A stretch of DNA of 64,000 nucleotides from Escherichia coli (GTDB taxonomy: Bacteria; Pseudomonadota; Gammaproteobacteria; Enterobacterales; Enterobacteriaceae). The stretch is taken from assembly GCF_050320075.1 (NCBI RefSeq), contig NZ_CP190022.1; one strand, written 5' to 3'. Numbering within the stretch: the stretch's first letter is position 1; each line of letters starts with the position of its first letter. The translations under genes and the position numbers were made by a program. Under the pieces are notes generated by a model that saw only the letters and a program-made list of their open reading frames with translations, did not search any database and was not told where the DNA came from. Positions 12,494-28,187 of the stretch are shown here, in pieces.

Positions 12494-12957
12494 ACCAGTG
12501 GAGGTATGCTTGAGGGGCAGGGACATGCCGGTCATGATCGTTTCGTTCCAGGGGTGGTCTGGAGATCATGCGGCGTGTCCTCTGCTCTCGCCGGAATAAG
12601 GACGTCGCCGGCGGCTCCGCTTTTACCCGGCCATGCGGGGCATGGCCTTGTGGGTTTTCAGGTATGAAGCCATCGTGTCGTGTGCGGGCTGTGCCGTGCC
12701 TCCATCGTAGCCGGGCTTCTGTGGGCGGGATGCAAGGTAAGATGAACCGCTGCGGTCACCCGGTCCCTCCTTCCCGTCTGCCGTGATTTTCCGGTCGTTC
12801 ACCCGCTCAGATTTCGCGGTCTCACCCTCCAACTCCCGTCAGCCGTGCGCGTCGGGCTGCGGCTTTCCTTGCGCCCTTGCATCCCTGCAGGCCCGGCAAA
12901 GATGGAGGCACGGCACCGCCCGGTGTCGCAGAACATGTGACTATGGAGGATTCGGGA

Positions 12958-13458
12958 ATGTCTGTTGTTGCACCTGCTGTATACGTTGGAACCTGGCACA
13001 AATATAACTGCGGAAGCATCGCCGGCCGCTGGTTTGACCTGACCACGTTTGATGATGAACGCGATTTTTTCGCCGCCTGCCGTGCCCTTCACCAGGATGA
13101 AACCGATCCGGAACTGATGTTTCAGGATTATGAGGGATTCCCGGGGAATATGGCCTCTGAATGTCATATCAACTGGGCCTGGGTTGAAGGCTTCCGCCGG
13201 GCACGGGATGAAGGCTGCGAAGAGGCTTATCGTCTCTGGGTGGATGATACCGGTGAGACGGATTTTGACAGCTTCCGCGATGCCTGGTGGGGCGAGGCTG
13301 ACAGTGAGGAGGCTTTTGCGGTTGAGTTCGTCAGTGATACCGGCCTGCTGGCTGACGTGCCGGAGACGGTGGCGCTCTATTTTGACTATGAGGCGTATGC
13401 GCGGGATTTATTCCTGGACTCCTTCACCTTTATTGACGGTCATGTGTTCCGTCGGTGA
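12958..13458 (+). CDS. ardA: Antirestriction protein ArdA (DNA mimic inhibiting type I restriction-modification)
   Basis: Translation MSVVAPAVYVGTWHKYNCGSIAGRWFDLTTFDDERDFFAACRALHQDE...DSFTFIDGHVFRR matches ArdA; very acidic; GGAGG RBS; track ORF extends upstream to 12877. Confidence 0.9.
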   Translation: MSVVAPAVYVGTWHKYNCGSIAGRWFDLTTFDDERDFFAACRALHQDETDPELMFQDYEGFPGNMASECHINWAWVEGFRRARDEGCEEAYRLWVDDTGETDFDSFRDAWWGEADSEEAFAVEFVSDTGLLADVPETVALYFDYEAYARDLFLDSFTFIDGHVFRR

Positions 13459-13640: not shown

Positions 13641-14140
13641 CTTCGGCTCCCGGCTGCCTGGCGGCATCCGGTCGTCGGCCCGACTCCGACAGGCAGCTGC
13701 TGGCGCACCCGCCAGTCTCCGCCGAACCCGCTGGCGCGGTTTCGGGCTGCCGCTACGGTCCGATGTCTGAAAAACCAGGCCTGCAGCGACCGTTCCGGTC
13801 GCGCCGCCCCTGTCGCGCCGGAAACGGCGCTCCCTGCACACCTGACGGTGTGTAAGGCCACTGCGCCTGATGGCGCAGTTGTCTGCCCTTCCGCCGCCAC
13901 CCCTGCGGCCTGTTTCCCGCTGTGGACTTTCCGGGGGCTGAAGCGGCCACAACACGTCTCAGCCGTCCAGGGGAAGATGTACCAGCCACAAAACTTTTTG
14001 CCGCAGGCGTCAAAAACTTTTGCGTCTGCCCCCGGACAACTGCCCCGTGCCGTGGCAGTCGCTGCCCCATCGGAAAGGTCCACTGCGGGGAGAAACCCCG
14101 AAGAAGTGGACGGCAGAAGGGGCTTTCGCCCCTCCGGGGA
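13641..14140 (+). repeat. Frpo/ssi-like single-strand promoter repeat, copy 2 (upstream of the 14188 ORF)
   Basis: Near-identical to copy 1 over about 500 bp; ends about 50 bp before ATG 14188. Confidence 0.7.
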
Positions 14141-14187: not shown

Positions 14188-14622
14188 ATGACAGTCAGCA
14201 GCACGATTTCCGTTTTTTGCCGAGACGGGGTGTTCCGTACCGTTTACTGCCACCTGCACGGTGAGCCGACCTGGAACGGTCGCATCCTGCATACCCACTA
14301 TGCCACCGGTCAGCTGGCCGAAGCCCTGGTTGAACACGGAGATATCCGTTGCCTCGGTCCCCGTTGCGACAAACCCGCCGGGCATACGCTTCAGAACCCG
14401 GTGGACGGTGTGACGGCTTATTACGGACGTGACAGTGGTTTCCGGATGGACAGTGAAGCGCGTGAGTACCGCTCTTTCAGGGAGGCTATTGCCACTGAAA
14501 GCACAGAAGAGGTGCGCTTCCATTATGTGTTCATCGACGGCTACTGGAAGGTGATGTACCGCACGCCGGAAGGCTGGAAGATGAAAGCGCTCGCGCTGGC
14601 ACTGCGTCGCTGTCCGGAATGA
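14188..14622 (+). CDS. Hypothetical leading-region protein (144 aa), first gene after repeat copy 2
   Basis: GAAGGAGA RBS 7 nt upstream of ATG 14188; Cys/His-rich (CHLHGEP...CLGPRCDKPAGH); no family recognised. Confidence 0.6.
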   Translation: MTVSSTISVFCRDGVFRTVYCHLHGEPTWNGRILHTHYATGQLAEALVEHGDIRCLGPRCDKPAGHTLQNPVDGVTAYYGRDSGFRMDSEAREYRSFREAIATESTEEVRFHYVFIDGYWKVMYRTPEGWKMKALALALRRCPE

Positions 14623-14625
14623 AAA

Positions 14626-14653
14626 AAAGCAGGGCGATAAACCCTGCCTTTCT
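14626..14653 (+). terminator. Hairpin terminator between the 14188 and 14715 ORFs
   Basis: GCAGGGC-GATAAA-CCCTGC stem-loop followed by CTTTCT. Confidence 0.4.
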
Positions 14654-14714
14654 CCGCCGGCGCTTCCCCGTACGGAAGTCCGGCATCTCATTCACTAACT
14701 ATGGAGATTATGCT

Positions 14715-14981
14715 ATGAGGCCATCAATTATCTTCGCAACCGCCGAGTATGTAAAGCGTCTGCGTGAAGAGTGCCGGCGGGAGAACAAACCCCTGCACCG
14801 CCATACCCGCTTCAGACGCCAGGAACTGGCACCGGATGAGATTAACCCGGACGTCCTGGCGATGGGCGGTCATATCGCCAGACGCTGCAGTGAGCGGAAG
14901 CGGGTGCGTATCCCCGCCATGAAAGTCAGCGAATGGGGCCACCTGCTCCGCGCGCTTGAAATTGAGCGGGTCTGCCACTGA
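14715..14981 (+). CDS. Hypothetical small basic protein (88 aa)
   Basis: ATG 14715 with GGAG 8 nt upstream (track ORF 14619-14981 includes an unlikely upstream extension); Arg/Lys-rich. Confidence 0.45.
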   Translation: MRPSIIFATAEYVKRLREECRRENKPLHRHTRFRRQELAPDEINPDVLAMGGHIARRCSERKRVRIPAMKVSEWGHLLRALEIERVCH

Positions 14982-15045
14982 TTAACCCTTGCCGTCTGCC
15001 TGTGCAGGCGGCAGGATACGTTCAGACATCTCACCAGGAGGAACC

Positions 15046-15984
15046 GTGAGTAAGAAGAAAACCACCACGACGCCCACGCCGCATGATGCCGCGTTCCGGT
15101 CGTTCCTGGCGAACCCCGACGTCGCCAGAGATTTTCTGGAACTGCATCTTCCGGCGGAGTACCGGCAGTTGTGCGACCTGTCCACGCTGAAGCTGGAACC
15201 CGCCACCTTTGTTGAGCCGGACCTGCATCAGTACGCCAGCGATATCCTCTGGAGTGTGAAAACCACCGGGGGTGAAGACGGCTATATTTATACGCTCATC
15301 GAGCACCAGAGCACCGAAAATCTGTACATGCCTTTCCGCATGTTACGTTACAGTGTGGCGGCGATGCAGAGACATCTGGAGCAGCACAAAACATTGCCAC
15401 TGGTGATTCCGGTGCTGTTCTATCATGGTGAGCGCAGCCCGTACCCGTACAGCATGAACTGGCTGGACTGTTTTGAGGATCCGGCGCTTGCGGCTAAAAT
15501 ATACACAAAGCCGTTTCCGCTGGTTGATATCACTGTCGTTGATGACAATGAAATCATGAACCATCGCCGGATGGCCGCACTGACGCTGCTGATGAAGCAT
15601 ATCCGCCATCGTGACATGATGGAGCTGCTGGACAAACTCCCGCAGGTCATGGTGGAAATTTCAGACGAGCAGGTGCGTGTTCTGATTCATTACATCGTTA
15701 ACGCAGGGGACTCTGTATCACCGGAATTTATGCGGGCGCTGGCTGAGCGTCTGCCGCAGCATGAGGATAAACTGATGACTATTGCCGAACGTCTTGAGCA
15801 GCAAGGAATACAGAAAGGAATACAGCAGGGAATACAGCAGGGAATACAGCAGGGAATACAGAAAGGCCGCATGGAGGAGAAGCAGGATATTGCGCGTCAG
15901 CTTCAGAAAACGGGAATGCCATCTGCACAAATCTGTCAGATCACCGGACTTTCCGAAGCTGAACTGAAGAACATCACTCACTGA
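15046..15984 (+). CDS. Rpn-family (YhgA-like, PD-(D/E)xK) recombination-promoting nuclease with C-terminal QGIQ-repeat tail
   Basis: N-terminal TPTPHDAAFRSFLANPDVARDFLELHLP...YIYTLIEHQS is the Rpn/YhgA signature; AGGAGG RBS 6 nt upstream of GTG 15046 (track ORF starts at 14989). Confidence 0.8.
   Translation: MSKKKTTTTPTPHDAAFRSFLANPDVARDFLELHLPAEYRQLCDLSTLKLEPATFVEPDLHQYASDILWSVKTTGGEDGYIYTLIEHQSTENLYMPFRMLRYSVAAMQRHLEQHKTLPLVIPVLFYHGERSPYPYSMNWLDCFEDPALAAKIYTKPFPLVDITVVDDNEIMNHRRMAALTLLMKHIRHRDMMELLDKLPQVMVEISDEQVRVLIHYIVNAGDSVSPEFMRALAERLPQHEDKLMTIAERLEQQGIQKGIQQGIQQGIQQGIQKGRMEEKQDIARQLQKTGMPSAQICQITGLSEAELKNITH
15805..15864 (+). repeat. Five tandem 12-bp units (GGAATACAG + AAA/CAG) inside rpn encoding (QGIQ)n
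   Basis: Perfect tandem 12-mers 15805-15816, 15817-15828, 15829-15840, 15841-15852, 15853-15864. Confidence 0.9.
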
Positions 15985-15993
15985 TGAGAACCA

Positions 15994-16023
15994 CAAAGCC
16001 CGGCAAAATGCCGGGTTTTTTTG
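15994..16023 (+). terminator. Rho-independent terminator after rpn
   Basis: AAAGCCCGGCA-AAA-TGCCGGGTTTTTTTT hairpin plus T-run right after the rpn stop (15982-15984). Confidence 0.65.
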
Positions 16024-16046: not shown

Positions 16047-16229
16047 ATGACGATTGCAGAACGTCTTATACAGAAAGGTTTCGACGAAGGTTTTAAGAAA
16101 GGTGCGCTTGAAGTGGCGCGGGAAATAGCCTGCCGGCTTCGGGATATAGGCTGGTCGCCGGAACGGATTCAGGAGGTCACGGGACTTTCCGGTGAAGAAC
16201 TGAAAAAACTGTTTCCTGATGAGCTGTAG
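16047..16229 (+). CDS. Small stand-alone protein (60 aa) paralogous to the Rpn C-terminal tail
   Basis: Own AGGAG RBS after the rpn terminator; MTIAERLIQKGFDEGFKKG...EVTGLSGEELKKL parallels the tail of the upstream Rpn (MTIAERLEQQGIQKG...QITGLSEAELKNI). Confidence 0.55.
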   Translation: MTIAERLIQKGFDEGFKKGALEVAREIACRLRDIGWSPERIQEVTGLSGEELKKLFPDEL

Positions 16230-16259
16230 CCTGGCATTCTGCCAGGCTGTGAATCACGC

Positions 16260-16511
16260 TCACACATCCTCTGCCGTTTCCCCCAGTTCATTTTCCAGTC
16301 GCCTGATGATATCTGCCTTACGCATCCCCTGCATGTGAGGCAGCAGGTCACGGACTGAAAGAGCCTGGGTGGTCCTCCAGACGGTGACGTCCACCTGTTC
16401 CGCATTTTCCCAGGCGTGCCATGTTCTCTGCGTCACGCCAAATTCTCTGGCCGCTTTTTCGCGTGACCAGAGCATGCTTTTTCGCCAGATTCGCAGTTCC
16501 CAGCCGGTCAT
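16260..16511 (-). CDS. Small helix-turn-helix transcriptional regulator (83 aa)
   Basis: Product contains an HTH-like segment (AAREFGVTQRTWHAWEN); sits directly next to two palindromic operator-like sites. Confidence 0.55.
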   Translation of the reverse strand: MTGWELRIWRKSMLWSREKAAREFGVTQRTWHAWENAEQVDVTVWRTTQALSVRDLLPHMQGMRKADIIRRLENELGETAEDV

Positions 16512-16527
16512 AAAACACCTTTGAAAA

Positions 16528-16611
16528 AGTGAAAAAACTTCACTTTATTTTATCATCATAATCATCAAATCAGCGCGATAAATAAGTGTGAAAAAGTGAA
16601 GAAATTTCACT
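16528..16611. promoter_or_regulatory. Two operator-like palindromes (AGTGAA-N5-TTCACT) in an AT-rich promoter region
   Basis: AGTGAAAAAACTTCACT at 16528-16544 and AGTGAAGAAATTTCACT at 16595-16611, each embedded in AAAAGTGAA...TTCACTTTT; immediately upstream of the minus-strand HTH gene start (16511). Confidence 0.45.
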
Positions 16612-16716
16612 TTTTTTTGATTGTGGGTGTCGTGCTGTTTTCTCTGTTTTCACCTGTGCGGGAGTGGTGTGCCAGTGACCACCACATGCCATTGTTGTGC
16701 CGTCGTTTTTCTTCAG

Positions 16717-17045
16717 TCGCGCCGGATGCGGCGCTCCCTGCACACCTGACGGTGTGTAAGGCCACTGCGCCTGATGGCGCAGCTGTCTCTGCCTGTCTGC
16801 CGCCGCACTGCGGCCCGTTTTCCGCAGACGGACTTTCCGGGGGTACATACACGACCACATCCCGTTTCAGTCGTCCAGGGGAGAGATGTACCAGCCACAA
16901 AACTTTTTGCCGCAGGCGTCAAAAACTTTTGCGTCTGCCCCCGGACAACTGCCCCGTGACGTGGTGAGCGTCCCCCGTCGGAAAGGTCCACTGCGGGGAA
17001 ATCCCCGAAGACCCGGACGGCAGAAGGAGCTTCGCTCCTCCGGGA
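16717..17045 (+). repeat. Frpo/ssi-like single-strand promoter repeat, copy 3 (5'-truncated; upstream of the 17089 ORF)
   Basis: Matches the 3' 330 bp of copies 1 and 2; ends about 45 bp before the 17089 start. Confidence 0.7.
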
Positions 17046-17088
17046 AATGACCTGGCTGACCCGGCAGTCGTGACGATGAGGAGACAAT

Positions 17089-17940
17089 GTGATGAATCAG
17101 ACTTTACCCACTGCTGACCTGAATACTGCCGGCACGACAGATGTTATTCCGTCTGTGGCTATCGACCGCATCATCGCGCAGCGTAACGAAGGTATTGCAC
17201 TGTTCATGCAGGCGATGGAATGCCTGGCGACAGCGCGCAGGATTCTGCTCGATGCTTCCGGTGACATTTTTCTCTACGGGTTTGAAGACTGCGTGACTGA
17301 TTCCGTTCGTCGCATGGATAAACCGGAAGAAGCGAAAAGGAATATCACCCGTCTTGCCGACCGGAAAATCTGGGACCGCCTGATGACAGATACGGGCATG
17401 TACACCTTCATGAGTTCATGCCAGCGTGATGAGTGGAACAGCCAGCTGATGAGCGACACCTGTCCTGAAATCATCCTGGACAATGTACTGGCAACATTCC
17501 GCCATCTGAATGCCAGCAAAATGCAGACATTTGAACAGGGACTGATTGATGTCTACCGGAAATTGTCATGGGATTACAGAACCAATAATCCCTGCCGTCT
17601 GGGCAAGAGAATCATTATTGAAAACCTGCTGTACCGCTGGAGTAACGGGCGTGTGACGCTGGACTGCAGCGGGCGGGAGGCACTGGATGACCTGGTACGT
17701 CCGTTTTATCTGCTGGATGGGCGCAACATTCCTGACTTCCGGAGCAGCATCGGGGCGCAGTATGGTGAATTTCTCGGGAACGGCGACAATGTCGGTAAGC
17801 TGTTAGAAGGGGAATATTTTACGGTGCGTGGCTACCAGAAAGGGACCGTACACATTGTCTTTAAGCGTTCTGACCTTGTTGAAAAACTGAATGATATTAT
17901 TGCACGGCATTATCCTGGTGCATTGCCGCCACGAGTCTGA
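17089..17940 (+). CDS. Hypothetical leading-region protein (283 aa)
   Basis: GAGGAG RBS; followed by a clean terminator; no family recognised. Confidence 0.6.
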   Translation: MMNQTLPTADLNTAGTTDVIPSVAIDRIIAQRNEGIALFMQAMECLATARRILLDASGDIFLYGFEDCVTDSVRRMDKPEEAKRNITRLADRKIWDRLMTDTGMYTFMSSCQRDEWNSQLMSDTCPEIILDNVLATFRHLNASKMQTFEQGLIDVYRKLSWDYRTNNPCRLGKRIIIENLLYRWSNGRVTLDCSGREALDDLVRPFYLLDGRNIPDFRSSIGAQYGEFLGNGDNVGKLLEGEYFTVRGYQKGTVHIVFKRSDLVEKLNDIIARHYPGALPPRV

Positions 17941-18025: not shown

Positions 18026-18361
18026 TCAATTGTTGTTCATATCGATGCCATCTTTTCTGCCTGAATCTGTCTTTTTAGGTGCTGTTTTAGAGGAAGAACG
18101 GCGGGATGGTTTTTTCGATTCTGCTTCCCGAATAATGTCACGAAGTGCCTTCTCTCCTACTTCATACCCTGCATTTTTGAGCGTGTCACGAACATCTGCC
18201 AGTGTATAACCCTTTGTCCTTACCAGGACAATGATGTCATCACGAATGGCATCAAGAAAATCACGCAATGTTTTCCGTTGAGCGGTGAGGTCCGGCAATT
18301 CCGATAAGGCAGATTTTGCCAGCTGGATGTCATCATCTGAGTAAAATTTTTTAGAAGCCAT
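18026..18361 (-). CDS. Hypothetical small protein with basic C-terminal tail (111 aa), divergent from oriT
   Basis: ATG at 18361 with GGAGAG about 10 nt upstream (track ORF starts at GTG 18367); C-terminus KKPSRRSSSKTAPKKTDSGRK suggests nucleic-acid binding. Confidence 0.5.
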   Translation of the reverse strand: MASKKFYSDDDIQLAKSALSELPDLTAQRKTLRDFLDAIRDDIIVLVRTKGYTLADVRDTLKNAGYEVGEKALRDIIREAESKKPSRRSSSKTAPKKTDSGRKDGIDMNNN

Positions 18362-18399
18362 TAGCACTTTCTCTCCGTTTCATGTTGAAGTCTGATTTT

Positions 18400-18590
18400 A
18401 TCATCAAAAACTGACTCCTGGCAGGGCTGCGCCCTGCCTCTGCCGTCTGCATAAGACTATGATGCACAAAAATAACAGGCTATAATGGCCTGAAAAACGG
18501 GACAGGATGTGGGAATGTCGGACCGCGCACGCGCACTCAGACATTCCCCACCTGGTCAGGGCTTTGCCCCGACACCCCGGTAAGGAGCAG
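18400..18590 (-). other. Origin of transfer (oriT), IncI/IncP-like, with predicted nick core on the minus strand
   Basis: Immediately upstream of nikA; minus-strand reads ...GGGGAATGTCTGAGTGCGCGTGCGCGGTCCGACATTCCCACATCCTG/TCCCG with the ATCCTG nick-core motif (plus 18503-18508) and a 12-bp-arm inverted repeat (18511-18522 / 18537-18548). Confidence 0.75.
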
Positions 18591-21877: not shown

Positions 21878-24178
21878 TCAGTATTTTTCGTCAGTTGTTG
21901 GTTGTGCTCCACATGATTTCTGGGGATGATCATTATTTATTGTCTGCGATTTATTATTTTCAGCGACCGGTAACAGTATCTCCAGGGGGAGCAGGGTATT
22001 CAGAATCGCCTTCACTGAAGGTATATCTTCAGGACCGGAGTGTTCCTCTTCCGGACGATTCAGTGTGATATAACATACCCGGCGTTCTTCCCTGGTTGTG
22101 TTATTGATAGTGTGCACAGCCTTTTTCCACAGTTCGTTTGCCCGGGATTCGATATCTGTATCATATTGCGGAAGCAGATCCAGTGATGTCTGCGCTGTTG
22201 CCAACCGGCGCTGGAATGTATCAATGATACGGTAAGGCTCTGTACGGTTTTTACGACGTTTACGGGATGGTTTTGCTGTCAGTACACCAATAATGCTGCT
22301 GACATGCTCCGGTGTGGGAAAACGGCGCTGCACTGTCCTGGGGACAAGACGGCGGAGACGTTCCAGTCGGGGGGCTTCAACAGAGATATAACGGTTGATG
22401 ACCACTGGATCACTGTCGCAACTTTTTTCGCTGTCCGGAATATACACAGAGGCTGACGGCACCACATCCCCCTGGAAAACGGTAAAGAATTCACCGGCAT
22501 TCAGTTTGATTAAATCCTGCACGTTGATTTTGCTTTCCATCTGGATTGTGATCTGGTTACCGTCCACCCAGGACTCTCCCATCACACCATCGTGGCGCTG
22601 CAGGCTGCCCATTCTGGCGCGGGCCTCTTCACCGGCGGCATTTTTCACCGTCCTTGCTGTTTTGTCGTCACTGACAATGCGTCCGGCGAATTTGGTGCCG
22701 GCGTTCTGCATCAGCGTGGCGGTGTTGGTGGCAGAAGTCTGCCCTTCGATTCGCTCCTGATCCTGCGCCGTCATTATCAGGGAGAACTCCAGTGAACGTA
22801 CCTGGGTGGCCTCCACTGCAATGCGGTCCGTGTAGTAGGCACCGACTTCGTCAAGGATACAGATATAGGGGAAGCGGCCTTTGTATTTTTTGACTTCCAG
22901 GGTCTGTGCATCTGTGCCTTCCAGGCGGTAGCCCAGGTCACGGGCGAGGATCATGCTCTGCTGGGTGATGAACATACGACCGAGTGCCGACGTGGTATGG
23001 GCTGATGTGTCCAGTGCGGGGATCATCACAATCAGAATTCGGTCGCTGTGGATACTGTCGCGAATATCGATGTCGCCGGCATCTGCCGCAAAGACGTCCC
23101 CGAAGGTTTCGGCAAAGGTTGTGAACGTTTCCGAGAACTGACCGGAGAGATAAGCATGCTGTTTACGGGGCTCCTCAGTCCAGGCTGACGGCGTTCTCAC
23201 CAGTGACATATCGAATCCCGGGACATCCTGCAGGTAGTTTCGCAGTGGTGCGATAGCTTCTTCCGGCCACTGGTCATCAAGGCCACGGCAATAGAGTTTT
23301 GCCATCCCTTCCAGCGTCATATGTTCCCGTAACATATGCAGGGACATGGTTTTACCTTCCCGGACGCACCAGAATTTTGTGCCAAAGACCAGGGCCTTGT
23401 TCATGGCTATCGCCCGTGACTGCCATTCTCCCCCCTGAACGTTCTGGGGCAGCATGGACTGCATGGTTTCGGCGGTGAAGGCTTCGGTGCTGAATGCGAA
23501 CGGGTTCCAGGTGTTTGACTGTGGGCGGGATTTATCGCCACTCTGAATGACTTCACTGCGGGATTTTCCGCCGTTCATGAAGTTGATGACCTCGATATCA
23601 TCCTCCCGGCCAAAACGTCGGGAGAGATACCAGATTGTCCTCGTGGTATCGTTCTGTGCCTTTCCGTCAACAAAGGTAAAGCCTCTTCCCCAGCAGAGCG
23701 GGTTGAGCAGCCAGGCAAAGGTGGTTTCTGTTTTACCGCCACCGGTGGTGGAAAAAAATATGATATGCCGGGTGAGGTCATCCATGCTCAGCCAGAGCTC
23801 ACGACCGATATCGTTGATACGGCGGTAACCGACATAAAAAATCCCCCGTGCGGGGGATGTTTCATCTGCTTCATACTGAAACAGGGTAGGCCAGAAGCTG
23901 AAGAGGCTTCGCCTGACCTTTCTGTCCTGGGAGGGGTCATCAAGGCTGAGCGTCATGGGCATACGCAGGGGGCATCGCCAGCGTTGCAGCGTGAATATCA
24001 CGGAGGTGACCAGGGTGAACAGCAGACAGACAGGAAGGGCCAGTGGCCATATCAGGGCCGTAATGATACTGCCAGCCAGACACAGACCAATGATGTTCAG
24101 GTTGTGCAGTGCATTCCACAGCGGGTTTCCCCAGGCCGTGCGGTGTATGAGGTCAGGATTAACGTGATGCTGGCTCAT
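21878..24178 (-). CDS. trbC: Type IV coupling protein (DotL/IcmO-like; TrbC of IncI-type systems)
   Basis: 766-aa product with N-terminal transmembrane segments and Walker A FFSTTGGGKTE; convergent with nikB; last gene of a three-gene minus-strand operon. Confidence 0.7.
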   Translation of the reverse strand: MSQHHVNPDLIHRTAWGNPLWNALHNLNIIGLCLAGSIITALIWPLALPVCLLFTLVTSVIFTLQRWRCPLRMPMTLSLDDPSQDRKVRRSLFSFWPTLFQYEADETSPARGIFYVGYRRINDIGRELWLSMDDLTRHIIFFSTTGGGKTETTFAWLLNPLCWGRGFTFVDGKAQNDTTRTIWYLSRRFGREDDIEVINFMNGGKSRSEVIQSGDKSRPQSNTWNPFAFSTEAFTAETMQSMLPQNVQGGEWQSRAIAMNKALVFGTKFWCVREGKTMSLHMLREHMTLEGMAKLYCRGLDDQWPEEAIAPLRNYLQDVPGFDMSLVRTPSAWTEEPRKQHAYLSGQFSETFTTFAETFGDVFAADAGDIDIRDSIHSDRILIVMIPALDTSAHTTSALGRMFITQQSMILARDLGYRLEGTDAQTLEVKKYKGRFPYICILDEVGAYYTDRIAVEATQVRSLEFSLIMTAQDQERIEGQTSATNTATLMQNAGTKFAGRIVSDDKTARTVKNAAGEEARARMGSLQRHDGVMGESWVDGNQITIQMESKINVQDLIKLNAGEFFTVFQGDVVPSASVYIPDSEKSCDSDPVVINRYISVEAPRLERLRRLVPRTVQRRFPTPEHVSSIIGVLTAKPSRKRRKNRTEPYRIIDTFQRRLATAQTSLDLLPQYDTDIESRANELWKKAVHTINNTTREERRVCYITLNRPEEEHSGPEDIPSVKAILNTLLPLEILLPVAENNKSQTINNDHPQKSCGAQPTTDEKY

Positions 24179-27167: not shown

Positions 27168-27556
27168 TAATCCCGGAAACGTACTTAAGGGCAGCGGGTA
27201 ACCGCCCTCTGCCCTTTAACAAAATATGCTCAGGTTAAAAATCGAAAACCTTCCTGCACTTCCTGCGCCTGTTCCCGTGAGTCAAACATGAGCCGGCTTT
27301 TCCCCGGAACTCCCCAGGAAATATATTCTACATCCACCCACCATTTTCCGTATTCTTCATACGGTCCGGATATCACTTTAGTGACAAATGCATCAACCAG
27401 GTTCATTTTTACACCTTTCTGTTATTCTGCTTATTACGGCCAGCAAACAGCAAATATTAAAAATAACGCGGCGGTAAAAATGGCAATTTTTTCCCATACT
27501 GTATTTTTTCCATTTATTTGCTTTGAAATGTTTTTTTGCTTCATATCAGTAAATGA

Positions 27557-28024
27557 TTATTTTTTATTCTGTTTCCTCCAGGCCCATGGTGGCACCGGAT
27601 TTTCATCTGCCCATAATCCCCGTTTAAGGGCACGGGCATCGCGCTGGAGAGCCGGGAGAGTATAGTCCTTGTTGTAGTCCGGGTATACCCAGGCCGCTCC
27701 CTTCCTGATTTGCTCACGATTCGCTTCAGTGCCGTCAGCGGTATAGACTCTGCCGAGAATACGGTTATATCTGTCGGTCTGTAAGTATTGTACGGTTACA
27801 GGCTTACCGGCCACCAGGTCTTTTAACTGAGAGGCAGACCAGCGTCCAAAGGGCTGTTTCTTTTCCGGTGCATCAATATTTGCCAGGCGGACCCTGACAG
27901 TTTTTTTATCCTGTAATATTTCCAGTGTATCACCATCAAGAACGCGGATAACGTTTCCCTGAATCTGTGCAGCGCAGAGGGAACCTGAAAAAATAATAGC
28001 GAGAGAGAATATATATTTTATCAT
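27557..28024 (-). CDS. nuc: Secreted thermonuclease (staphylococcal-nuclease fold), plasmid Nuc
   Basis: Signal peptide then SNase motifs (VIRVLDGDTL...VRVRLANIDAPE...GRVYTADG...GLWAD). Confidence 0.85.
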   Translation of the reverse strand: MIKYIFSLAIIFSGSLCAAQIQGNVIRVLDGDTLEILQDKKTVRVRLANIDAPEKKQPFGRWSASQLKDLVAGKPVTVQYLQTDRYNRILGRVYTADGTEANREQIRKGAAWVYPDYNKDYTLPALQRDARALKRGLWADENPVPPWAWRKQNKK

Positions 28025-28187
28025 TTTATTACATCCTTTTTATTCATGAAAAACAGGCGGCGTTTATATTATGGAATAATATCGTTAAGTTGAGTTTATG
28101 TTTCCGGTAATGTAATGCTTCACGCAGCGCATGAATTCCAGTAGGCTAATATTCATGATGATATAGTAACAGATATCCGGTGACAGT

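Follow-up and report, generated by a model that had tools for sequence, protein, structure and literature searches.

A probable autoregulated XRE-type repressor with two palindromic operators in the leading region of IncI-complex plasmids

The DNA considered here, a 64,000-nucleotide (nt) stretch from Escherichia coli (contig NZ_CP190022.1; hereafter the window), is the leading region of an IncI-complex plasmid. Its minus strand encodes an 83-amino acid (aa) helix-turn-helix (HTH) protein, annotated as 'ygeA' in some IncI1 plasmids and as 'helix-turn-helix transcriptional regulator' in RefSeq, that is very likely an autoregulated repressor of the XRE class; it would act through two palindromes upstream of its own gene, stay silent on single-stranded DNA (ssDNA) and subsequently limit its own synthesis. 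The initial annotation had proposed such an autoregulated switch, and comparative evidence strongly supports it. Three lines of this evidence point to the palindromes as the protein's own operators: a site lies at a conserved −10 element, over the core promoter and predicted start of the cognate gene; the footprint of conservation coincides with the sites; and their half-sites covary with the adjacent protein.

The two sites, AGTGAA-AAAAC-TTCACT (proximal) and AGTGAA-GAAAT-TTCACT (distal; Table 1), are exact copies of AGTGAA-N5-TTCACT, and the initial annotation had placed them correctly between the Rpn module, together with a small open reading frame (ORF) ending at 16229, and an ssi/Frpo-like promoter repeat. 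The minus-strand ORF that it had recognized downstream of them is likewise present, with a ribosome-binding site (RBS) and HTH profile matches. These are the only two exact copies in 64 kb, as against none in 100 dinucleotide-preserving shuffles; allowing two mismatches added a single match in the window, which is the chance level, and a closely related plasmid held no further copy in its remaining 28 kb. The palindromic arms are longer than first noted, extending to 8 nt in the first site (AAAGTGAA/TTCACTTT) and to 10 nt in the second (AAAAAGTGAA/TTCACTTTTT). A GTDB genome scan for chromosomal targets of the form AAAGTGAA-N5-TTCACTTT returned at least 120 stretches, and the matches listed were from unrelated taxa at approximately chance density, none of them enterobacterial. 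Each site is embedded in a 39-nt direct-repeat unit; the two units are 82% identical and 67 bp apart, the same distance that separates the two sites, and the center of the distal site is about 63 bp upstream of the predicted transcription start.

The predicted ygeA promoter is marked by an extended −10 element, TGaTAAAAT. The proximal site begins 2 nt downstream of this element and contains the predicted transcription start (~16540). TAAAAT recurs at −41/−40 from the ATG in five other scanned loci (as TAGAAT in L010; homologous loci are designated by L numbers), and it is the only promoter-like element common to all six diverged loci scanned; −35 elements are weak in every one of them and unrelated to one another. 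When the window is compared with L002, whose coding sequence is 80% identical, the extended −10 (11/11) and the 5' untranslated region (UTR; 16/16) are kept in full, and the proximal site is kept at 14/17 positions and the distal site with its flanks at 22/27; the figures for the inter-operator spacer and the upstream flank are 14/35 and 8/20. Among six close I-complex plasmids, 2/60 columns vary in the operators, −10 and UTR versus 21/79 in the spacer and flank (Fisher p = 1.6e-4), the 16-nt 5' UTR being invariant and the proximal site variable in one of its 17 columns. These alignments show the −10, operator and RBS to be under selection. The only operator substitution among the six is in plasmid p85 of E. 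coli 1943 (L150), where A to G at half-site position 6 gives a proximal operator AGTGAG-N5-TTCACT.

More distant loci supply the covariation. Proteins 33–57% identical to that of the window (L003, L004, L008, L018, L019, L145, L146) are accompanied at the same place by AGTGCA-N5-TGCACT, a 36% identical protein from Providencia (L012) by AGTGAC-N5-GTCACT, and a 32% identical protein from a phage-plasmid (L007) by AGTGTC-N5-GACACT. The outer AGTG...CACT frame is constant among the homologues, and changes at the inner two positions go with changes in the protein. The proximal position holds a homologous site in L002, L003, L004, L008, L010, L018, L019, L145, and L146; in most homologous loci it directly follows a TAAAAT-like box, and in the window, L002, L003, L004, L008, L010, and L019 it begins 1–2 nt after the conserved TAAAAT. 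For any one 60-nt stretch, the probability of containing such a site by chance is about 0.01. The sites of L002 and L010 each have arms that are unequal at position 5, with AGTG and CACT unchanged; since unequal arms break hairpin complementarity and keep the frame, protein recognition is favored over a structural role.

A second copy lies 54–57 bp upstream in most loci of the AGTGCA group. L145 (GCA_001654865.1, about 2858–2985) carries three tandem AGTGCA-type operators, 55–56 bp apart, upstream of its HTH homologue, which suggests that tandem duplication is the way in which the promoter-operator unit grows. The operator spacing of 67–68 bp in I-complex plasmids differs from the 54–57 bp of the AGTGCA group by about one helical turn. 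Strict helical phasing of the two operators is ruled out by spacing variation within groups and by a 37-bp case in L011.

In the mechanism that we propose, an XRE-type dimer would bind each 17-bp palindrome upstream of its own gene. The half-site centers would be 11 bp apart, approximately one helical turn, which places both half-sites on one face of the DNA. Because the proximal site overlaps the predicted start, bound protein would exclude or trap RNA polymerase, while the distal site, 67 bp upstream, may serve as an auxiliary operator that sharpens repression. The ygeA promoter would be silent during the ssDNA phase in the recipient, conversion to double-stranded DNA (dsDNA) would bring a burst of HTH-gene expression, and self-limitation to a low steady state would follow. 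We infer that the protein physically binds the sites and does so as a dimer, and likewise where transcription starts, the sign of its regulation and any cooperativity.

The expected silence of the promoter in the recipient derives from strand orientation. In the window, ssb, the ParB-methylase gene, psiB, psiA, ardA, the Rpn gene, and the DUF4942 gene are all plus-strand genes directed towards oriT, which implies that the transferred strand (T-strand) is the minus strand, their template. The sense strand of the HTH gene is therefore the transferred strand itself, and transcription can occur only after the complementary strand has been made. The double-stranded-phase reasoning of the initial annotation was accordingly sound, and the orientation is constant: in all leading-region contexts examined (the window, plasmid pMS7163B, L003, L004, L008, L019, L145, and L146), the HTH gene is opposite to its neighbors and antisense to the genes transcribed from the T-strand. 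Its upstream side adjoins a strongly structured ssDNA-promoter-like element in these contexts, with DNA-fold z-scores of −5 to −7 (window, L003, L004, L008). At its 3' end, the gene is separated from the convergent gene by 8 bp in L012 and 19 bp in L003 and overlaps it in L008 and L013, leaving no room for a terminator. The convergent partner is Rpn in several contexts, and L003, L004, L008, L019, L145, and L146 lack Rpn. IncL/M-type homologues (32–37% identity) are arranged otherwise, inside a co-directional operon with an Mrr_cat 'restriction endonuclease' gene; those of L006 (2501–3329; pCTX-M3), L147 (6001–6829; pOXA-48 type), and L020 (4001–5307) overlap the start of the downstream gene. 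The IncL/M layout is closer to a controller-protein or antitoxin arrangement than the IncI layout is. A 113-aa MobC-like gene beside oriT in the window (18026–18367, minus strand) resembles the HTH gene in occupying the strand that is untranscribable from incoming ssDNA.

The protein itself has the properties expected of an XRE/Cro-C1-type regulator, with HTH_3/HTH_31 profile matches and a helix 2-turn-helix 3 fold. Its match to Pfam HTH_31 (E 7e-5, 23.5 bits) is under the gathering score of 27 and that to HTH_3 (E 0.007) is just under threshold; across the family, 34 of 37 members match HTH_31 and 31 of 37 match HTH_3 at E <= 0.01. AlphaFold2, run on the 37-sequence alignment, returned a helical HTH fold (pLDDT 91) with helices at residues 3–12, 17–24, 28–35, 42–60, and 65–75, the third of which is expected, from the model, to be the recognition helix. 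The top Foldseek matches in the PDB are mostly XRE-type HTH proteins, led by Aca2 and followed by HipB, SinR, CapH, and restriction-modification controller proteins, with E-values that are weak, as expected for 83 aa. Between the window and L002 alleles (80% nucleotide identity), dS is 1.43 and dN 0.08; by this measure (dN/dS 0.06), the gene is under strong purifying selection. The family is small: a search of 1.84 billion proteins yielded only 79 representatives at E <= 1e-3. Neither Pfam nor NCBIfam has a model dedicated to it, and it corresponds to PHROG 6962, 'unknown function'.

Several points weigh against autoregulated repression as a full account of the locus. Given the poor −35 everywhere, the promoter assignment depends on the −10. 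The distal site is absent from L019, L012, and L007 and its spacing varies (37, 54–57, and 67–68 bp), making a cooperative role a guess; from about −63, it could conceivably activate. An autoregulator without another target has no obvious purpose, and transposon-directed insertion site sequencing (TraDIS) found insertions in an orthologue to be neutral.

The TraDIS data are from a sister plasmid, pMS7163B, in which the operators are identical to those of the window and the HTH protein differs at two C-terminal residues. Insertions in the orthologue pMS7163B_00770 (71285..71536) gave a log2MPM of 13.07 and a log2 fold change (log2FC) of +1.63 after conjugation (PMC10286972, S1 Table A). Neutral cargo genes on the same plasmid range from +0.8 to +2.0 (PMC10286972); the value for the HTH gene is within this range, indicating that it is dispensable for maintenance and for surface conjugation between laboratory strains. 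No repressor of conjugation emerged from the study, and forced expression of some other leading-region genes was costly (PMC10286972). In the neighboring Rpn unit, insertions were enriched after conjugation in pMS7163B_00790 and 00800 (Rpn and the ORF upstream; log2FC +2.77 and +3.07, as against about +1 for neutral cargo genes), which suggests that laboratory matings yield fewer transconjugants when the Rpn module is present; pMS7163B_00780, the orthologue of a 60-aa ORF resembling the Rpn tail, scored +3.16 (PMC10286972).

The initial annotation had gone on to suggest that the regulator could gate the neighboring leading-region genes, and this extension is unsupported: there are no further operators, the only divergent promoter is a weak candidate, and the TraDIS insertions are neutral. 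A repressor of toxic neighbors would be expected to score negatively in such an experiment, which the HTH gene does not. The operators are situated upstream of the ssi element, at a distance of about 100 bp, rather than between it and its gene, and are therefore unable to block transcription starting inside ssi. With only two detectable DNA targets on the plasmid, both at the gene's own locus, a role beyond self-control is undemonstrated.

Alternatives in which the locus has a further output must nonetheless be weighed. The same operators might also repress a plus-strand promoter reading through the distal operator and ssi into the DUF4942 gene, giving a second, dsDNA-phase pulse of DUF4942 expression that is shut off as the repressor accumulates; we consider such a bidirectional gate improbable. 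Two plus-strand promoter candidates overlap the proximal operator, TTGAAA-N19-TATTTT, of which the operator forms the spacer, and GTGAAA-16-TATCAT (16529–16556), from a consensus scan; the former, however, combines a weak −10 with a 19-nt spacer. Its −35-like TTGAAA sits in the fully conserved UTR, but the RBS and the minus-strand −10 account equally well for conservation within the IncI group, and outside that group, in AGTGCA-type loci, the −35 is poorly conserved (TAAATA, TAGAAA, TTAAAA). The HTH module always adjoins an ssDNA-promoter-driven unit, and Reg576 provides an established case of establishment genes expressed transiently under repressor control (PMC6294495); yet disruption of the repressor orthologue by insertions costs neither fitness nor conjugation, although forced expression of other leading-region genes is costly (PMC10286972). 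A comparably low probability attaches to the wider proposal that the family is a leading-region equivalent of the Aca repressors and serves as a 'second-strand sensor'. Encoded on the strand closed to transcription from incoming ssDNA, and invariably next to the ssDNA-promoter unit that enters first, it would mark completion of the complementary strand and close dsDNA-phase expression of adjacent establishment or toxic genes; the means could be repression of a divergent promoter, transcription running convergently into the Rpn unit, or host targets.

Less probable still is that the output of the locus is the transcription itself, running convergent or antisense over the Rpn-tail-like ORF towards the Rpn 3' end, so that residual dsDNA-phase Rpn expression is damped and the HTH protein only sets the level. 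The HTH stop codon is followed by no intrinsic terminator (a hairpin there is without a U-tract), and the first terminator-like site beyond it spans 16015–15999; the 3' end adjoins or overlaps a convergent gene in L012, L003, L008, and L013, as described above, and convergent pairing with Rpn recurs. Against this, the gene occurs in the six Rpn-free contexts already listed, a dN/dS of 0.06 implies that the protein is more than a promoter accessory, and TraDIS values of +2.8 to +3.2 for Rpn-unit insertions compared with +1.6 for the HTH gene give no sign of harmful Rpn de-repression on HTH loss. That the palindromes are host-factor sites (a CRP-like half-site pair) or DNA/RNA hairpins not bound by the HTH protein is hardly credible, for although their GTGA/TCAC core resembles the CRP consensus TGTGA-N6-TCACA and they could fold into hairpins while the transferred DNA is single-stranded, GTGA and TCAC are spaced by 7 rather than 6, the half-site shifts (AGTGCA, AGTGAC, AGTGTC) track divergence of the adjacent protein in a manner not expected of a host-factor site, the symmetry of the arms in L002 and L010 is broken while AGTG/CACT persist, and the operator is weak as an RNA hairpin (−5 kcal/mol, z-score −1.1), its region giving only chance-level matches and no family in Rfam.

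Table 1. Features of the HTH locus and its surroundings in the window
Feature	Position	Strand	Basis or remarks
83-aa XRE-type HTH gene	16260..16511	−	ORF and HTH profile matches
RBS AAGGTG	16516..16521	−	4 nt before HTH-gene ATG; read from sequence
Promoter-operator module	16513..16618		Two 39-nt direct-repeat units (16513–16551, 16580–16618) and diverged spacer
Proximal operator (predicted), AGTGAAAAAACTTCACT	16528..16544		Sequence and exact search
Extended −10 of predicted ygeA promoter, TGATAAAAT	16547..16555	−	Sequence and conservation
Distal (auxiliary) operator (predicted), AGTGAAGAAATTTCACT	16595..16611		Sequence and exact search
Candidate divergent promoter, TTGAAA (16521–16526)-N19-TATTTT (16546–16551)	16521..16551	+	Position weight matrix scan; speculative; start ~16558
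ardA	12877–13458	+	Pointing towards oriT
Rpn gene	14989–15984	+	Rpn unit spans 14619–15984
Small Rpn-tail-like ORF, 60 aa	16047–16229	+	Resembles C-terminal tail of adjacent Rpn nuclease (BLASTP E 2e-5)
GC-rich hairpin	16228..16250		Between convergent 3' ends of Rpn-tail-like ORF and HTH gene; −21.5 kcal/mol, z-score −3.5
ssi/Frpo-like single-strand promoter repeat	about 16712–17065	+	Adjoins operator module, precedes DUF4942 gene
DUF4942 gene	17089–17940	+	Pfam DUF4942 match
oriT	about 18400–18500		Upstream of nikA/mobA and relaxase gene
nikA/mobA	18507	+	
Relaxase gene	18938	+	

The plasmid record that best matches the window is typed IncK2/Z, MOBP, and MPF_I. The ssi/Frpo-like repeats at 13812–14055 and 16716–16964 are 96–97% identical, and a plus-strand leading gene follows each of them, orf144 (14188) and the DUF4942 gene (17089), respectively; the T-strand of the second element folds strongly (z-score −7.4). 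The Rpn-tail-like ORF is placed after the intrinsic terminator of Rpn (15999–16022, plus strand) and, were the HTH transcript to read through, would be antisense to it over its whole length; the hairpin between the two convergent 3' ends has no U-tract on either strand. The C-terminal region of Rpn (15750–15870, plus strand) carries a short tandem peptide repeat, (QQGI)n / QKGIQQGIQQGIQQGIQKG.

The HTH module is present in 1339 of 5426 complete E. coli genomes and in more than 2000 sequenced plasmids of the IncI complex, a major vehicle of extended-spectrum β-lactamase and AmpC resistance. The leading region is now recognized as an anti-defense island driven by ssDNA promoters, and the few of its genes that run counter to the transferred strand have attracted notice but no explanation (PMC11541004). 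RNA-seq of early conjugation on pESBL indicates that not all leading genes are induced (PMC12672017). A full-text literature search for 'ygeA' with 'plasmid' returned only an unrelated F-plasmid gene, and no description of AGTGAA-N5-TTCACT operators was found in the literature. The HTH protein is a widespread, unstudied member of a familiar class, the autoregulated XRE repressors. What sets it apart is that it is consistently placed beside ssDNA promoters in a 'second-strand-only' position and is related to Aca2, and this would make it more important only if it proved to have a target other than its own gene. Should it control its neighbors, it would be the missing protein-based off-switch of the ssDNA-promoter establishment program of IncI plasmids and a handle for perturbing plasmid establishment; should it control only itself, it would be an ordinary small autoregulator whose operators, promoter and specificity variants are now defined.

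Among known systems, the C proteins of restriction-modification systems (C.AhdI, C.Esp1396I, C.PvuII) are XRE-type HTH proteins of about 80 aa that use two palindromic operators upstream of their own gene and impose a delay after host entry, and they appear among the Foldseek matches of the 83-aa protein at ranks 24, 28, 37, and 49. Their C-boxes, however, are adjacent (within ~35 bp) and lie over the −35, and the C gene is co-transcribed with the restriction gene, whereas the operators described here are 67 bp apart. Assignment to the C-protein class was rejected on the grounds that the neighbors are the Rpn module and the DUF4942 gene on the other strand, with no adjacent restriction-modification gene. 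A type II toxin-antitoxin XRE antitoxin (HipB, HigA or MqsA-like) was likewise rejected, there being no same-strand neighbor and NCBIfam antitoxin models scoring far below their cut-offs; an essential antitoxin is also unlikely in view of the tolerated insertions in the orthologue (log2MPM 13.07).

KorC (IncP, IncU, IncL) and ArdK (IncN, IncW) are small autoregulating plasmid repressors that silence leading-region or anti-restriction genes (klcA), with zygotic induction (PMC12365149). They differ from the HTH protein in having operators at several promoters, and thus a regulon, as opposed to two sites at a single locus, and their sequences show no detectable similarity to it. A tblastn search of pOXA-48-type records with the 83-aa protein found one place, 22391–22639, which is not korC. 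Nor is it orf20, an essential XRE gene of pOXA-48 (PMC12365149), which was discarded as a homologue since it follows nuc at 27556–28035 and is a different gene. Deletion of the F-plasmid 'ygeA' lowers conjugation about 25-fold (PMC9849209), but that gene (L021, 4033–4320) encodes an unrelated 95-aa protein downstream of Frpo1; the connection is a collision of names only, and 'ygeA' annotations on IncI plasmids should not inherit the F-plasmid conjugation phenotype. Reg576 of p576 (pLS20 family) is a self-regulating plasmid repressor whose absence from a new recipient permits a transient burst of expression until it accumulates (PMC6294495). It controls four promoters through TTATCCC heptamers and takes the place of ssDNA promoters, whereas the HTH protein coexists with them and has only its own promoter as an identified target.

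The nearest solved relative by sequence profile is Aca2 (four entries, best E 1.8e-6, residues 1–60), which is also the top Foldseek match (TM 0.60–0.61, 28–32% identity). Aca2 has been shown experimentally to autorepress anti-CRISPR operons through two inverted repeats, TTCG-N6-CGAA and TTCG-N8-CGAA, at the promoter and 5' UTR (PMC6765145). Membership of the 83-aa protein in the Aca2 family is ruled out on four counts. The Pfam model for Aca2 (DUF1870/PF08965) matched neither the window protein (E <= 0.1) nor any of the 37 family members (E <= 0.01). Aca2 is 115–125 aa long and has a C-terminal dimerization domain, whereas the 83-aa protein has one short helix after helix 4, and the profile alignment between them ends at Aca2 residue 63. 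The repeats are different, TTCG-N6/N8-CGAA as opposed to AGTGAA-N5-TTCACT; and aca2 is co-transcribed downstream of its acr gene, whereas the HTH gene belongs to no acr operon, being monocistronic and antisense to its neighbors, of which one is convergent and the other divergent. What the two share is the N-terminal motif MTxxEL..RK......AA.E.G.S.R.W..WE (compared with Aca2 of, e.g., phage ZF40; PDB 7VJO, 7EZY, 7B5J) and a common situation, in that each is a small HTH protein carried on a mobile element and encoded among anti-defense genes.

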